A stretch of DNA of 64,000 nt from an uncultured Alphaproteobacteria bacterium (GTDB lineage Bacteria; Pseudomonadota; Alphaproteobacteria; CAAHEQ01; UBA3637), in assembly GCA_949292205.1 (NCBI GenBank), contig CASEYR010000001.1, positions 155,530-219,529 on the forward strand, read 5' to 3'. The notes beneath the pieces are model-generated. The model was given only the letters and a program-made list of their open reading frames with translations, was not told where the DNA came from and ran no database searches. A program made the position numbers and the translations under genes. Positions 38,904-45,542 of this stretch are shown here, piece after piece (the first letter of the stretch is position 1; every line of letters begins with the position of its first letter).

Positions 38904-40322
38904 ATGCGTAAAGAACAAATCAGTATGGAATCCGGACGGAGTATGGTTGAGGTCTTGGGTGTTCTGGCTTTGGTCGGATTACTGACGATTATGGGAATTA
39001 TCGGCATATTCTTTGCCATTGACAAAAATATGGCTAATACCATTGTTCACGATTCAAAAATTGCTTTTATGGAGATGAAAACGCCGTCAACAAAACCCTC
39101 TTTAGAGTGGAGCTCTATTTTATTCCAGCCGGTTTCCCAAAAAACAATGACCGTTCGTCGTGATTTTTTAGGGCGAGATTTTGTAAAAGCCGACAATATA
39201 GACCAAGGCGTTTGTAGACAAATGCTGAGTATGCGGGTTGAAAATGTCTTGAACTTTTACAACTTGGATAATACCGAGATGACTTCGTGTCTTGAAACAA
39301 ATGATATTATTATAGATTGGAATGGATTTGGTCCCCCTGCCGTTTGTCAAACCGTGTCGGATTGCGATGTTCCGAATGAACCGCCTTTTGAAGGAATCTG
39401 CTCTGATCAGGGACAATGCCAAGCTTGCCCCACCTATCAAAAACCAAACGCGAATCGCACAGCGTGTGTTTGTGATCCGGAACAAGCCGTCACTTGCACC
39501 TTAAATCAGGAAAATTGGTGTTGCGGTCCGGATTTGATTTGTGGCGATACTGTCGGCGAATGTATTGAGTCAAACTATACATGTGCCTATAACTTTTACC
39601 CGAACGGAGCACCCGGCACAATCTTTTACACAGATTGTAGTTATGTCGTTTCCGATCAAAACAATGTGTCGGAATATGGCGGGGATTGCACCTATGTCAT
39701 TCAAGAAACCGGAGATTCCAACAAGTGGGTAGACGGCACGGGAACAGAGCAAACGATTTACAAACCAGCCTCCGGCAATCGTTTTGCAACAGCCGGAAAA
39801 GGATGTCCCGCCAATCAATATTGTGCCGTTTTATGGGTTGACGATGACGGCGTTTGGAAGGCCGGTGAAACCAAAACGGCTCCTAACAATGCAACCGGTG
39901 TTTTATGGGGAAAATGTCAAATGTTATCTTCCTATGACCAAACCCCTATCACAAAATACAAAAACGGTTACGGCTTGGTAACGGTTAATCAGGGATGTCC
40001 GGCAGATCAATACTGTGCCGTTTTATGGACGTTACAGGAATGGACACCCGATATACAAACGCCAAAGGCCCCCAATGATGCAACGGGTATTTTATACGGG
40101 CGGTGCCAAATGTTATCTGCCTATGAACAAGAACCGTTATCCAAAAATGAAGCCGGAAACACCCGTTATCAAGTGGTTCAGGGATGTCCCGCCAACACCT
40201 ATTGCTATCTGAATTGGGAAACGGATACCGATTGCACCACCGTTTCCAACGATAAAACAGGGACAATTTATGGGGCCTGTGCCCAACTGAACAGTCGAGG
40301 AACTTGCCCGTATGAGAAATAA
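38904..40322 (+). CDS. prepilin-like N-terminus, Cys-rich secreted protein with three ~60-aa internal tandem repeats
   Basis: GGGGAG RBS; MRKEQISMESG|RSMVEVLGVLALVGLL (Gly then Glu at +5, hydrophobic helix; Flp/type IV prepilin-like, atypical Arg at +1); repeats QGCPAxQYCAVLW...NxATGxLxGxCQMLSxYxQxP; stop overlaps avd start. Confidence 0.55.
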   Translation: MRKEQISMESGRSMVEVLGVLALVGLLTIMGIIGIFFAIDKNMANTIVHDSKIAFMEMKTPSTKPSLEWSSILFQPVSQKTMTVRRDFLGRDFVKADNIDQGVCRQMLSMRVENVLNFYNLDNTEMTSCLETNDIIIDWNGFGPPAVCQTVSDCDVPNEPPFEGICSDQGQCQACPTYQKPNANRTACVCDPEQAVTCTLNQENWCCGPDLICGDTVGECIESNYTCAYNFYPNGAPGTIFYTDCSYVVSDQNNVSEYGGDCTYVIQETGDSNKWVDGTGTEQTIYKPASGNRFATAGKGCPANQYCAVLWVDDDGVWKAGETKTAPNNATGVLWGKCQMLSSYDQTPITKYKNGYGLVTVNQGCPADQYCAVLWTLQEWTPDIQTPKAPNDATGILYGRCQMLSAYEQEPLSKNEAGNTRYQVVQGCPANTYCYLNWETDTDCTTVSNDKTGTIYGACAQLNSRGTCPYEK

Positions 40323-40710
40323 TGAGGTTCTGCCCATTTACATAGAGGCCTATAACCTAACCCAGGATATTTTTAAGAAAACCGTCAAGTTTCCAAAAGA
40401 ATACAAATTTTTACTGGGAACACAGTTGAACGAGGCATCAATAGAGCTATGCTGCCTGATAACCAACACCGCCAGAGCGGCTCAAAAATCAGTGTTGTTG
40501 GAAGGTATTTTAAACCAGTTGGATAAAATAAAAATTGAATTCAGACTCTGTGCGGATTTTAAACTGTTAAGCAACCAACAACAGGCATCCATAGCCACAC
40601 GTTTAGAGAAAATAACGGGACAAGCGATTGCCTGGTTGAAAAGCGAAAGGAGGAAACAATCCATAACAAGTATGCCGGAGTCAGGAACAACTCCGAGTTA
40701 TCCTGAGTGA
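40312..40710 (+). CDS. avd: accessory variability determinant (Avd)-like small protein
   Basis: 132-aa predicted helical basic protein immediately upstream of TR and RT, as in DGR avd-TR-brt cassettes. Confidence 0.55.
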   Translation: MRNNEVLPIYIEAYNLTQDIFKKTVKFPKEYKFLLGTQLNEASIELCCLITNTARAAQKSVLLEGILNQLDKIKIEFRLCADFKLLSNQQQASIATRLEKITGQAIAWLKSERRKQSITSMPESGTTPSYPE

Positions 40711-40808
40711 GCATTTTATTTTTTAATTTTAAAAGGGTCGATCACCGCCTTTTGATGGTAAACACAATAGAATCGACTGGTACCTTGGGCGAAGTCCCGA
40801 AAACAGGG

Positions 40809-40917
40809 CGTGCCCAGTGCAAATAATGCATATAACGTGAATCTTTCTTCCGGTGCGGTCAACAACAACAATCGTGACAACAACAACACCGCCCTCTGCG
40901 TTGGATTCTGAGCTTTT
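40809..40917 (+). other. DGR template repeat (TR), 109 bp, adenine-rich (AAC/AAT codon runs)
   Basis: Matches reverse complement of 42538-42646 at 98 of 109 positions; all 11 mismatches are A in TR. Confidence 0.85.
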
Positions 40918-40942
40918 GAAATTAAAATAGCATGATATTATT

Positions 40943-42310
40943 ATGGAACAACTAAACTTTTACGATTTAGTATCTGATTTAACATTACAAGAGGTCTTTC
41001 AGTCCTATTTGGATTGTCGTCGAAACAAACGTCGTAGTTTGTCTTCTTTGCGTTTTGAAAGAGAATACGAACATAATCTGATTCGATTGTATGATGATAT
41101 TATACGCCGACGTTATCAGAGCCGCCCCTCCAAGGCCTTTATTGTGGATAAACCAGTCCAACGAGAGGTGTTTGCCGCCGATTTTCGGGATCGGATTATC
41201 CACCACCTAATCATCGGGTATTTAATGCCCGTGTTTGAACGTATTTTTTTAAATGAATCATACAGCTGTCGCGTCGGAAAAGGGACTCTATTCGGTATTC
41301 AATCCTGCGCTCAAATGATGCAAATTTGTTCCAATCATTACACAACGGATTGTTATGTGTTAAGGCTGGATATTCACGGCTTCTTTTTTCATATAGATAA
41401 ACGTATTTTATATCGAAAATTGAAACAGTTAATCGATACGCAATACCATCATGTAAATAAATCGACCATCTTGTTTTTAATCCGAGAAGTGTTGCGCGAT
41501 AATCCGACTGAAAATTGTAAAATCAGCGGATCTAAAAGCGCATGGATTGGACTTCCAAAAACAAAAAGCCTGTTTTTCAGCGGCCGAAACAAAGGACTTC
41601 CCATCGGTAATCTGACCAGCCAAGTTTTTGCCAATTTTTATTTGAATGATTTTGACCATTATGTCACTGGGTTGGATAAAGATTTGTTTTATGGACGATA
41701 CGTCGACGATATCGTCATTATGCACCCCAGCCGGGAGTATCTGCTTCAAGTCAAACAACACATCGACACTTATTTAAGGCAAGAGCTGGGGTTAACATTA
41801 CACCCGAAAAAGGTATCATTACAACATTATGCCAAAGGGTTCGCCTTTGTCGGCGCCTATATCAAACCCGGACGCGTTTATCCTGGCAAAAGGTTGCGTC
41901 GATCATTTTATTTAAAGATGCAACACCTGAACACGTTATGGGAAAACAACACACAAAAAATGAACCGAGCGTTGCTTGAAAAGACGTTATCAAGCATCAA
42001 TTCTTATTTTGGGTTATTAAAACACTTTGACGCCTGGCGGATCAAATTAAAGGGATGGAATATGTTAAACGAACAAATCCGAAGTGTTTTTCGAACAAAT
42101 GAACGGTTAAACAAAGTCTGGATAGAGCCCCAAACAAAACGCCAGATGATTGATGATGCCCGAAAAATGTTCACAGAGCCACTCAGGTATCCCAAGAAAT
42201 ATAAAAATCTTGTCCAAAAATGGAATCGCCTGTCACCGGAAGAGGCACTCAAATCTTGTTTAGGTCCTTCTTACATCACGATACCAGAAGACGAAAAAGA
42301 ATCCACTTGA
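40943..42310 (+). CDS. DGR-type reverse transcriptase
   Basis: RT motifs including LPIGNLTSQVFANFYLNDFD (DGR hallmark IGxxxSQ) and FYGRYVDDIVIM (YxDD). Confidence 0.9.
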   Translation: MEQLNFYDLVSDLTLQEVFQSYLDCRRNKRRSLSSLRFEREYEHNLIRLYDDIIRRRYQSRPSKAFIVDKPVQREVFAADFRDRIIHHLIIGYLMPVFERIFLNESYSCRVGKGTLFGIQSCAQMMQICSNHYTTDCYVLRLDIHGFFFHIDKRILYRKLKQLIDTQYHHVNKSTILFLIREVLRDNPTENCKISGSKSAWIGLPKTKSLFFSGRNKGLPIGNLTSQVFANFYLNDFDHYVTGLDKDLFYGRYVDDIVIMHPSREYLLQVKQHIDTYLRQELGLTLHPKKVSLQHYAKGFAFVGAYIKPGRVYPGKRLRRSFYLKMQHLNTLWENNTQKMNRALLEKTLSSINSYFGLLKHFDAWRIKLKGWNMLNEQIRSVFRTNERLNKVWIEPQTKRQMIDDARKMFTEPLRYPKKYKNLVQKWNRLSPEEALKSCLGPSYITIPEDEKEST

Positions 42311-42430
42311 GATGCATTTGCATACTGTAATGCGATTGGAGAACGTTTGATTGACGCAACGACAGAGTGTGTTAAAACGATGTGGACAGGCGAAAGTGGA
42401 ATTGGGAAAAGAGGAAAAGACCGAGGATAG
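42311..42430 (+). pseudogene. decayed fragment of a C-type-lectin-like DGR target paralog, in frame directly after the RT stop
   Basis: Translates DAFAYCNAIGERLIDATTECVKTMWTG, compared with SAFAWCDAIGGQLIDITTECIKTTGTTG in the intact target (about 65% nt identity); no start codon. Confidence 0.5.
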
Positions 42431-42537
42431 CAGGGAAATAAAAACGGCCGCTTCGCGGCCGAGACCTGTCCGCCGGGGACGTCGGACAGGAAAAAAAGTC
42501 TGCCATAAAAGGCAGACTTAGTTAAAAAAATGTTAAT

Positions 42538-42646
42538 AAAAGCTCAGAATCCAACGCAGAGGGCGGTGATGCTGCTGTCACGATTGCTGGTGGTGACCGC
42601 ACCGGAAGAAAGATACACGAAATATGCATAAATTGCACTGGGCACG
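42538..42646 (-). other. DGR variable repeat (VR) at 3' end of target gene
   Basis: Cognate of TR; substitutions A->T x6, A->C x2, A->G x3 relative to TR, none at non-A positions; 3' 27 nt identical to TR. Confidence 0.85.
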
Positions 42647-42924
42647 TTTTGTGTCCATACCAAAGCACTTCCAGTCTCTGTTAAATTCGGGCACCCCGTT
42701 GTTCCGGTTGTTTTAATACATTCCGTTGTTATATCAATCAGCTGTCCCCCGATTGCATCACACCAAGCAAAAGCACTCCACCAATTCATATTAGTATTAC
42801 TTTGACAATAACGGGTGCCGTCCAAGCCCGTCACAACGGTTCCACTACCCCCCGCGCATGATTCGGCAACCGCCGATGTTGACAACAAAACAGATAAACA
42901 AATCATCCCTATGTATTTTTTCAT
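42544..42924 (-). CDS. DGR target: small secreted C-type-lectin-fold-like variable protein (126 aa precursor)
   Basis: Sec signal MKKYIGMICLSVLLSTSAVA; WSAFAWCDAIGGQL motif (CLec-like WxxAxxxCxxxGxxL); C-terminal 34 aa encoded by VR. Confidence 0.8.
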   Translation of the reverse strand: MKKYIGMICLSVLLSTSAVAESCAGGSGTVVTGLDGTRYCQSNTNMNWWSAFAWCDAIGGQLIDITTECIKTTGTTGCPNLTETGSALVWTQNVPSAIYAYFVYLSSGAVTTSNRDSSITALCVGF

Positions 42925-43092
42925 GGCAATACTCCTTTGCTATCCCCTATTCTATCCAATCCACCGCCGTATTGCAAGTATTTTTATCACGACATACACA
43001 AAAATTCACACTTCCTTATCAGACTCATCCGTATCTGACCCCCAGAAAGTTCCATTTTATGCCCTATGTTGATTTAACATACTAAAAAATTA

Positions 43093-43737
43093 TCAGCGTC
43101 CTAACTTTTCATACCGTTGAACCAATCGGGTATATTGGTCTTTTGTATACCGATGTTGAATGTTAGAGCGTGTTCCCGCAGAAGCAGAAAGCGGACTGAC
43201 AACCCGCCAAAAACCATTTCCATCTAACCGAAAAACCTCTCCCGTCAATGTTTTGGGAATAACACCTGATTTATCCGTTCCCTCTGCACGAATTGAATCT
43301 GATGTTAAAGCCGAATTTTTAAAAAACGTCATCCACTCTTGCCGAGTCATCGCATGATTATCAGATGGTGTATAATTTTGTAAAAACTCTTTTTCAAATA
43401 TACCACTCGGTAATTTCTTTTGTTGACGCGCTATTGCCAAAGCCTCTTTTACAGCTGAACGAATCCCACGTTTTTTATCTTTTTGAACGATATCTAAAAT
43501 AAAATCAGATTGGGCAAAAATTTGATTAAACTCAACCGATCTTGCCCCGATGTTATTATCATCAATTTCGGCAGAAAAGCTCTGTTTCGGATTGCTTTCA
43601 ACCCGTTTAACGTAGTCATCAAATGCTTTTTCCCCAGGTAATTTTGTATCGCCATTACATCCAACACCCAACAAAGACAGTGTCGCCATTGATAACGCCG
43701 CCGCCATTCCTTTAAATGATTTCTTTAACTCTGTCAT
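43093..43737 (-). CDS. lipoprotein, hypothetical
   Basis: Lipobox LLGVGC; 4-nt overlap with upstream ABC transporter gene. Confidence 0.5.
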   Translation of the reverse strand: MTELKKSFKGMAAALSMATLSLLGVGCNGDTKLPGEKAFDDYVKRVESNPKQSFSAEIDDNNIGARSVEFNQIFAQSDFILDIVQKDKKRGIRSAVKEALAIARQQKKLPSGIFEKEFLQNYTPSDNHAMTRQEWMTFFKNSALTSDSIRAEGTDKSGVIPKTLTGEVFRLDGNGFWRVVSPLSASAGTRSNIQHRYTKDQYTRLVQRYEKLGR

Positions 43738-45542
43738 TCGTCATCCTCCTTTTCATTGACCTCTTTTTTGTGAAACTGTGCCATATATAGGGCTTCATAG
43801 GCGCCTTTTTTCGCCAATAATTCTTGATGAGTCCCCTCTTCTACTATATGACCTTCGTTAATAACCACAATCTTATCCGCATTCTGAATCGTGGATAACC
43901 GATGCGCTATGACCAATACCGTTCTGTCTTTCATCAGGTTATCTATCGCTTGTTGCACGATCGCTTCGGATTTGTTATCTAATGCCGATGTCGCCTCGTC
44001 CAAAATCACAATCGGCGCATTCTTTAAAAAAGCTCGGGCAATCGCAACACGCTGTTTCTGTCCGCCGGACAAAAGAGTTCCTCGCTCACCTATATCCGAA
44101 TCCAATCCTTTTTCAAGACTATCAACAAAATCGTCTAAACATGCCATCTTTAATGCTTGACGAATCTCGTCCTCGGTCGCATCAAACTTGCCTAAAATCA
44201 AGTTATCGCGAATCGTTCCGGAAAATAAGAAATTATCCTGAAAGACCATACCGATACTATCTCGTAAAGACTCTAACGTTACATCCCGAATGTCGTGACC
44301 ATCAATTTGAATAGAACCGCTATCCACATCATAAAATCGCGGAATCAAGCTGACAATCGTTGATTTTCCGCCGCCGGAATTACCGACAAAAGCTACTGTC
44401 TGTCCTTTTTTAATCGTTAAATTGATATCTTTTAAAACCGGTGTTCCGGGAACGTATGAAAAATCAACATCTTTAAACAGAATCTTGTTCTTCAGACTCG
44501 GCAAAGTTATCGCATCCTTTTTGTCCTTAATCTTTATCGGTGTTTCTAAAATTTCAAAAACACGCTCTATCGCCATAAAAGACAGTTGAACCGCATTGAA
44601 GTTCTTGCCTATGTTCTTAATCGGCGTATACAGCATTAACATAGCCGTCATAAAGGCAACAAAATCACCCGCCGTAATCGTCTTGCTGGTAATTAAATAG
44701 CTACCATACCAAATTGTTCCCGCTATACCAATCGCAATAATGATATGCATCATCGGTGACAGCCACGCTGTCCGTTGGATGTTCTTAATAGATAGCTTAA
44801 ATGCTTGATTTAATGTATCAAAAAACTTCCTTTTTTGGTGTTCATTTAAGTTGTAGGAGGCTATCGTTTTAGAGCCTGCATGTGTTTCATTAAAAGAGGT
44901 TAAAACAGCCCCTCCAACCACGATTGAGCGAGCAACAATATCTTTTATCTTTTTGCGTATCATTGTCAACGGATAGAGTGATGTCCCTAAAACAACAATC
45001 GCTATAACCGCTAATTGCCATGAGGTATATAACAAAACACAAATCAATGTAACTGATGAAAATATACGTGTTGTAAAAACTCGAACATTATTTAACAATC
45101 CCGTACAGGCCGTATCCGCGTCTCCGTTAAAACGCATCATAATTTGTCCAGATGCATTTTTATCAATATAACTTTGATCAATTGCCAATAATTTGGTATA
45201 CAACTTCTTCTTAAGCTCCATCGTTACCTTGCCACCCGTCCAAGCACTTAAATATGCCGAACCATAATCCAATGCGGCTTGCAACACTGTGAAAAAGATA
45301 ACAAATACCGGTATAATCCACAAAGGCATATTAAAGGGAGTTGTTCCACCTTGATCCATAATCACGGTATCCATAAAAGGCTTTAACGCCAACGCAATCA
45401 CTGCATCCAATGAACCAATCGGAATTGTGATTAAAATAGATAACAATGAACGAAACCAGAACGGTTTTATAAACGGCCACATCCGTGAATAGTTCAAAAT
45501 AAAACGATTATTTTTGAATTTATACGACAACTTACGAAACAT
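43734..45542 (-). CDS. ABC transporter fused permease/ATPase, MsbA-like exporter
   Basis: Six-TM domain plus Walker A GNSGGGKST and signature [14 protein letters not shown]. Confidence 0.85.
   Translation of the reverse strand: MFRKLSYKFKNNRFILNYSRMWPFIKPFWFRSLLSILITIPIGSLDAVIALALKPFMDTVIMDQGGTTPFNMPLWIIPVFVIFFTVLQAALDYGSAYLSAWTGGKVTMELKKKLYTKLLAIDQSYIDKNASGQIMMRFNGDADTACTGLLNNVRVFTTRIFSSVTLICVLLYTSWQLAVIAIVVLGTSLYPLTMIRKKIKDIVARSIVVGGAVLTSFNETHAGSKTIASYNLNEHQKRKFFDTLNQAFKLSIKNIQRTAWLSPMMHIIIAIGIAGTIWYGSYLITSKTITAGDFVAFMTAMLMLYTPIKNIGKNFNAVQLSFMAIERVFEILETPIKIKDKKDAITLPSLKNKILFKDVDFSYVPGTPVLKDINLTIKKGQTVAFVGNSGGGKSTIVSLIPRFYDVDSGSIQIDGHDIRDVTLESLRDSIGMVFQDNFLFSGTIRDNLILGKFDATEDEIRQALKMACLDDFVDSLEKGLDSDIGERGTLLSGGQKQRVAIARAFLKNAPIVILDEATSALDNKSEAIVQQAIDNLMKDRTVLVIAHRLSTIQNADKIVVINEGHIVEEGTHQELLAKKGAYEALYMAQFHKKEVNEKEDDE

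Follow-up and report, generated by a model that had tools for sequence, protein, structure and literature searches.

The targets of DGRs have been reported to range from 44 to 2697 aa in length, with Ig or CLec folds alone making up the smallest of them, and in the DUF1566 class about half of the targets are short, with a single domain and no other motif (Wu et al., PMC5758913). Small DGR variable proteins are also found in Bacteroides, where BovT and BfiT are confined to the periplasm. The variable proteins Mtd, TvpA and AvpA (the last being 256 aa long) carry, within the core fold, inserts that support the VR. Here we describe a locus from an uncultured gut alphaproteobacterium, contained in a stretch of 64,000 nucleotides that was analysed as a whole (henceforth referred to as the window), in which a short ORF had been singled out by a first-pass annotation as an unusually small DGR target. 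The protein is indeed smaller than the solved Mtd, TvpA and AvpA, but its length lies within the surveyed range of 44-2697 aa and short targets consisting of a CLec domain only are known (PMC5758913); likewise, the accompanying statement that most described DGR targets are much larger is true of the solved structures but does not agree with the surveys (PMC5758913) or with BovT and BfiT. The target is a compact example within a known class of DGR targets.

The whole of the evidence is best explained if the ORF encodes the variable protein of a chromosomal, recently active DGR in this uncultured gut alphaproteobacterium, a reading to which we assign a probability of roughly 0.85. The features on which the argument draws are as follows, with positions counted from the first nucleotide of the window:

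38904-40322, plus strand: Cys-rich, pilin-like protein of 472 aa, counted from the MRKEQ start, with its stop overlapping the start of avd
40312-40710, plus strand: Avd-like accessory gene, 132 aa, the first 11 nt of which overlap the pilin-like gene
40809-40917, plus strand: TR, 109 nt, between avd and the RT gene, with 11 AAY codons; identical in strain L037
40943-42310, plus strand: DGR reverse transcriptase (RT), 455 aa, with a match to RVT_1 (E 1.3e-18) and the motifs IGNLTSQ and YVDD
42311-42380, plus strand: relic of a second copy of the target gene, AFAYCNAIGERLIDATTECVKT, immediately 3' of the RT stop codon (tblastn E 3e-7)
42445-42461, minus strand: second hairpin, GC-rich and resembling a terminator (7 G-C pairs, T run after the stem)
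42496-42519, minus strand: first stem-loop 3' of the VR, 9 pairs (5 of them G-C) followed by a T run, ~18 nt past the end of the TR/VR homology
42538-42646, minus strand: VR, 109 nt, running from the last base of codon 93 through codons 94-126 and the stop codon to 6 nt past it; inverted repeat with the TR
42544-42924, minus strand: target gene, 126-aa precursor plus stop; predicted mature protein of 106 aa, a compact C-type-lectin-like domain
42865-42924, minus strand: Sec-type signal peptide (residues 1-20) as read from the sequence, with predicted cleavage between AVA and ES
42932-42977, minus strand: promoter-like site TTGCAA-17-TAGAAT and AAGGAG ribosome-binding site of the target gene, both consensus matches only

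The two copies of the inverted repeat (40809-40917 and 42538-42646) are 90% identical over 109 nt, and all 11 of the mismatches between them fall at adenines of the copy at 40809-40917, an outcome with a chance probability of 1.4e-7 when 11 random sites are drawn among 109 positions of which 30 are A. Therefore, the copy at 40809-40917 is the TR and the copy within the ORF is the VR. When translated, the TR reads VPSANNAYNVNLSSGAVNNNNRDNNNTALCVGF followed by a stop and holds 11 AAY (Asn) codons, 10 of which are changed in the VR, and the last 29 nt of the repeat are free of TR/VR differences despite containing three TR adenines. The mismatch pattern, together with the location of the last 34 codons within the VR, bears out the earlier description of the ORF as a DGR target whose 34-aa C-terminal tail is encoded by the VR. 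A comparison between strains extends this result. Over 8001 nt, a contig of strain L037, obtained from another sample, shares 98.4% identity and its gene order with the window. The TRs of the two strains are identical, and their VRs differ at 17 sites, every one of which (17/17) is a TR adenine, so that the divergence of the VR is 15.6% compared to 1.4% in the flanks (binomial p = 3e-13 versus the flanks). Since the TRs are identical and the VR differences lie solely at TR adenines, homing was recent and occurred after the strains diverged, and the comparison provides direct evidence of mutagenic homing since the separation of the window strain and L037. Other assemblies of the same strain (L039) break off at the very end of the VR, as a repeat would lead one to expect. 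The same adenine bias is seen in the TR/VR pairs of related loci, where 9 of 10 mismatches (L004), 16 of 18 (L016) and 14 of 18 (L011) are at A, and the remote targets L017, L020, L013 and L019 likewise match the TR of their own genome.

The avd, TR and RT elements lie on the plus strand directly after the pilin-like gene, and the target gene converges on them from the minus strand. The motif [I/L/V]GxxxSQ is diagnostic of DGR-type RTs. In a phage collection, relatives of the RT included, among the matches listed, Bacteroides uniformis phages F1, F2 and F4 (36-39% identity), and five Bordetella phage records were present among the 67 records matching the RT. Sub-threshold matches to Drt and retron families raised the reading of a defence-type RT, which was rejected given the presence of a TR/VR pair. 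The Avd-like protein matched PF22296 bAvd (E 4.5e-8, 34 bits with a cut-off of 40) and NF033474 DivGenRetAVD (E 1.5e-11, 44.5 bits with a cut-off of 80), and an Avd-like gene is conserved beside the RT in related loci; position and this conservation in related cassettes support the Avd assignment. If the locus follows the established DGR mechanism, TR RNA would be copied into cDNA by the RT with Avd, with misincorporation opposite adenines, and the cDNA would then replace the VR, with the invariant 3' segment CACCGCCCTCTGCGTTGGATTCTGAGCTTTT and the hairpin downstream of it as guides. The 11 AAY codons alone could permit about 15^11, or ~9e12, different peptides. The stem-loop at 42496-42519 is a candidate for both an intrinsic terminator and the DGR target-recognition hairpin, and in the related loci examined each TR-matched VR is followed, at an equal distance, by a comparable hairpin. 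Two further GC-rich hairpins lie beyond this first stem-loop downstream of the VR.

The target gene has a sigma-70-like site at 42977-42949 and an AAGGAG ribosome-binding site at 42937-42932, the latter 7 nt 5' of the ATG. By inspection, the N-terminus of the precursor, MKK-YIGMICLSVLLSTS-AVA followed by ES, combines a positively charged n-region with a hydrophobic core and an AxA motif for cleavage, features that agree with the Sec signal claimed at first pass, and this layout is conserved in 41 homologues; residues 1-20 were modelled by AF2 with low pLDDT. The A-E-S that precedes C23 does not fit a lipobox, and the N-terminus looks like a signal peptidase I type substrate. Sec would export the precursor, and cleavage after AVA20 would release a compact C-type-lectin-like domain of 106 aa; the lengths given previously (a precursor of 126 aa and a mature protein of about 105 aa) were therefore correct for the precursor and within one residue of our prediction for the mature protein. 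Six cysteines (C23, C40, C55, C69, C78 and C123) are conserved.

A C-type-lectin-like fold was predicted for the target with high confidence (AF2 pLDDT 89.3, pTM 0.78). A Foldseek search with this model returned solved CTLDs, albeit with modest TM-scores of 0.45-0.5 over the whole precursor, and the family profile matches the mosquito C-type lectin mosGCTL-3 (E 2.4e-4). Searches with the single protein against Pfam, NCBIfam and PDB sequences gave nothing significant; PF07603 (Lcl_C) was not matched by the target even at E <= 10 and was reached by only one of 41 relatives (E 0.025). Thus, of the CLec/FGE-sulfatase fold that had been proposed, the C-type-lectin-like half is upheld by AF2 and Foldseek alike, whereas the resemblance to FGE-sulfatase is not, since the Pfam search revealed no FGE-sulfatase signature (PF03781) and the domain has little room for inserts around the core fold. 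The idea of a near-minimal CLec scaffold also stands, the target being essentially one bare domain. In the AF2 model, the link between beta2 (88-90) and beta3 (99-104) is only 8 residues long, and the domain is therefore of the compact CTLD form, with no long-loop region; as modelled, it would have little room for large inserts of the Mtd, TvpA or AvpA type. The variable residues map to predicted beta3 (98, 99, 102 and 104), to beta4 (111-114) and to the turn into beta5 (117-119), where they alternate with the conserved hydrophobic residues A100, Y101, V103, L105 and V110. The alternation along strand 99-105 and a peak in family entropy at the AAY positions are indirect signs that the VR residues may occupy an exposed face. 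Beta5 derives from the invariant 3' part of the VR and includes C123, the codon of which (TGC) contains no adenine. The domain is probably held by three disulfides (23-40, 55-123 and 69-78), among which C55-C123 would be the canonical alpha1-beta5 bond.

We found 45 close relatives of the target, and an exhaustive profile search yielded 670 cluster representatives (50% identity, E <= 1e-3), the members being mostly 120-150 aa long among the 150 listed of the 670 clusters. The family is unannotated and no domain database recognises it. Conserved throughout are NWWSAFAWC, the six cysteines, W90 and the VR framework (A100, Y101, V103, L105, SSGAV and ALC); the motif NMNWWSAFAWCDAIGGQL, to which attention had been drawn at the outset, is present in the target and is the most conserved part of the family. 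Conversely, the 11 positions that are AAY in the TR of the window are the most variable columns family-wide, with a column entropy of 3.38 bits compared to 1.69 bits at other VR positions and 1.48 bits in the scaffold. A motif-based scan of one genome per species returned 31 loci, all 31 of them in MAGs of uncultured Alphaproteobacteria, many from animal or human gut; the scan used one peptide pattern, and the family may occur elsewhere. At least 13 of these loci came from one MAG and at least 8 from another (MAGs JAZTVX01 and JAFTSJ01; loci L013-L033), many of them at contig starts. In such multi-copy genomes, the adjacent target and two to three remote paralogues correspond to the single TR identified, their mismatches being biased to adenines, and the remaining paralogues have no TR match, those that are TR-matched being a minority. 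Since only some paralogues match a TR, the family is only partly DGR-diversified, and judging from these sequence matches the remote targets appear to be diversified in trans and the other paralogues not.

The gene on the far side of the cassette from the target encodes a protein in which a G-R-S-M-V-E-x-L-G segment leads into a hydrophobic helix, after which come a Cys-rich region and three repeats of ~63 aa of the form GCPxxxYC...YGxC. Among its homologues (n = 43), a short leader precedes G-R-S-M-V-E and a hydrophobic stretch, with no variation at G, S, M and E and very little at R and V, and AF2 predicted a helix of 45 residues (14-58), a beta head and then Cys-rich beta modules. Three of the eight family members tested gave sub-threshold matches to prepilin or PilA models, with family scores of 12.8 bits for TIGR02532 (cut-off 16.3) and E values of 0.004-0.09 for PRK10506 and PilA, and a Foldseek search with the full-length model gave no significant PDB match; the term 'pilin-like' is therefore to be read as a weak lead. 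The N-terminal module of this protein is common to thousands of database proteins with varied C-terminal domains, some of them F5/8 type C. In L001 (1737-3317) and L006, an extra gene of 526 aa, absent from the window, lies between the XerC-like gene and msbA, and is similar in its N-terminal part to the pilin-like protein (32% over 140 aa). The pilin-like ORF itself, a 500-aa ORF in the usual target position, was considered as a second DGR target and rejected, as it has no VR and no TR-like sequence.

A homologue of the pilin-like gene lies within 3.5 kb of the target-family gene in 13 of the 15 loci with at least 3 kb of flank. The adjacency occurs in tandem or convergent arrangement, with or without an RT, and down to about 31% identity between the target proteins; in the window the avd-TR-RT module is embedded between the two genes. 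Furthermore, a protein of 633 aa from the profile search, encoded outside the window (P0092), contains a pilin-like N-terminal module, a Cys-rich region and two target-like CTLDs in one chain (BLASTP E 9e-7 against the pilin-like protein, 2e-12 against the target), and this natural fusion supports a functional link between the two gene families. The pilin-like neighbour thus looks like the conserved partner of the target, rather than the MsbA exporter raised at first pass. Tentatively, the pair could constitute a two-piece adhesin, in which a type IV pilin-like subunit carries or hands over a separately encoded CTLD head that is rewritten by the DGR, with the same TR diversifying remote paralogues in genomes that contain 8 to 13+ copies. 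In the most speculative step of this scheme, the diversified domain and the pilin-like protein would form a variable ligand-binding module, which a type IV pilin-like structure would display or deliver. The larger ORFs of the window that were scanned encode housekeeping proteins, MacAB-TolC-like efflux components or unannotated products, with no sign of pilus or type II secretion machinery. If the two-piece arrangement is true, it would represent a modular, swappable surface-recognition system in gut Alphaproteobacteria, parallel to the fused type V pilus tip adhesins of Bacteroides although built differently.

Alternatively, the target might be a free-standing diversified binder in the periplasm or secreted from the cell, for example a sensor or scavenger of variable ligands, with no physical link to the pilin-like protein, in which case the adjacency would reflect co-inheritance or co-regulation only. 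We consider this possible although somewhat doubtful. It would accord with the target having its own promoter-like site, ribosome-binding site and terminators and converging on the pilin-like/avd/RT operon, with the precedent of BovT and BfiT as small proteins that occur only in the periplasm, and with the capacity of all six cysteines to pair internally, which leaves none for a covalent link. However, co-inheritance or co-regulation is at odds with an adjacency that persists in both orientations, to about 31% target identity and regardless of whether an RT is present, and with the existence of P0092, in which both modules are fused in nature.

A different partner had been suggested in the form of the two genes immediately upstream of the target, on which its export might depend:

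43093-43737, minus strand: orphan lipoprotein, 214 aa, lipobox LLGVGC; its start overlaps the msbA stop (ATGA)
43734-45542, minus strand: MsbA-like ABC protein (TIGR02203, 529.5 bits, E 9e-159, below the 602-bit cut-off)

Dependence of the export or function of the target on these two proteins is highly improbable. Although the two overlapping genes are on the strand of the target, lie 169 nt upstream of it and are syntenic with it in L001, L006, L037 and L038, this synteny is restricted to these close relatives; at the more distant DGR-linked loci of the family (L003/L004, L011 and L016) neither MsbA nor the lipoprotein is nearby, and ribosomal-protein or other genes adjoin instead. The target moreover carries its own Sec leader, and the ABC protein scores as a homologue of the MsbA lipid A flippase (albeit below the cut-off) and is encoded among the housekeeping genes for an XerC-like recombinase, PriA, BamB and Der. 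The export link raised at first pass finds no support. The window as a whole is ordinary chromosome, with BamB, Der, XerC-like recombinase, PriA, MacAB-TolC-like and PolA genes near the cassette. The 214-aa lipoprotein had no match in Pfam or NCBIfam. Compared with their counterparts in L001, the lipoprotein is 98.6%, MsbA 88.5% and the target 80% identical, a degree of lipoprotein conservation that was unexpected.

Close relatives also record the history of the cassette. L001, L006 and L038 lack the block from 40292 to 42537, which comprises avd, TR, RT and hairpins, and homology to the window restarts exactly at the 3' end of the VR (42538). These loci retain a target and a pilin-like gene that converge on each other, with no RT at that site; since the pair is kept there in the absence of avd, TR and RT, it functions without local diversification. 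In the window, the relic at 42311-42380 was recognised by translation, AFAYCNAIGERLIDATTECVKT aligning with AFAWCDAIGGQLIDITTECIKT, and by blastn to the L001 target gene. The arrangement it implies, with the RT followed by a target on one strand, agrees with that in L003 and L016, and it suggests that the ancestral layout had RT and target on one strand and was rearranged later. The cassette has been rearranged at the window locus. A tblastn search of the phage collection with the target gave no match, and there is therefore no sign of a phage origin. That the likeness of TR and VR stems from an ordinary duplication or a dead relic, leaving an ORF that is no longer diversified, would suit both the lack of avd-TR-RT in sister lineages and the rearrangement to which the second target copy attests, but it is almost certainly wrong in view of the 11/11 TR/VR mismatches at TR adenines (p about 1e-7), the 17/17 inter-strain VR differences at TR adenines between strains with identical TRs and flanks that differ by 1.4%, and the intact RT, Avd and target ORFs.

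The target leaves the understanding of DGRs unchanged, and its significance is of a different kind. As modelled, it is a DGR variable domain of 106 residues that appears to be a bare CLec core on one face of which ~1e13 variants may be naturally tolerated. All solved DGR variable proteins brace the VR with inserts, and a structure of the target would show whether the core and its probable disulfides suffice; the sufficiency of the core fold bears in turn on the use of the target as a compact binder scaffold. In addition, an unannotated family that is tied to a pilin-like family offers an entry point for studying surface recognition in a gut lineage that has received little attention.

Among known systems, the CLec2/DUF1566 (Lcl_C) targets, category 'd' of Wu et al. 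2018 and exemplified by Legionella LdtA, share with the target a short, single-domain, exported CLec protein with the VR at its extreme C-terminus, and their Avd-containing cassette has a counterpart in that of the target locus with its Avd-like gene. They differ in that LdtA has a lipoprotein signal, whereas the target appears to have a signal peptidase I type leader, and in that the target is structurally closer to the CTLDs of animal NK receptors than to Lcl_C. Mtd of BPP-1, TvpA of Treponema denticola and the nanoarchaeal AvpA have in common with the target a CLec-type fold with variable residues starting from around beta3, an invariant, IMH-encoded last strand (beta5), the AAY-codon logic with ~1e13 variants, and a non-variable aromatic residue amid the variable positions (Y101 in the target). 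These proteins are larger and contain inserts that bolster the VR, for which the 106-aa target domain has little room. The type V pilus tip adhesins of Bacteroides (BfrT, BthT and BunT) offer a further parallel, in that a gut DGR diversifies a CLec head with a genetic or physical link to pilus subunits, and in that a small periplasmic variant exists (BovT and BfiT). In contrast to these adhesins, in which the CLec head forms one polypeptide with a type V pilin domain or a helical pair, the window has a separate CLec gene, its neighbour has some resemblance to a type IV and not a type V pilin, and the host is an alphaproteobacterium. Finally, the compact CTLDs of the NK receptors Ly49, LLT1 and KLRG1 and the C-terminal domain of Bdellovibrio Bd2740 are 10-16% identical to the target in sequence, and the W-x-x-A-x-x-C helix motif of the target aligns with the matching segment of DC-SIGN and mosGCTL-3. 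Set against the canonical compact CTLDs, the target has no long-loop region and is hypermutated by a retroelement.
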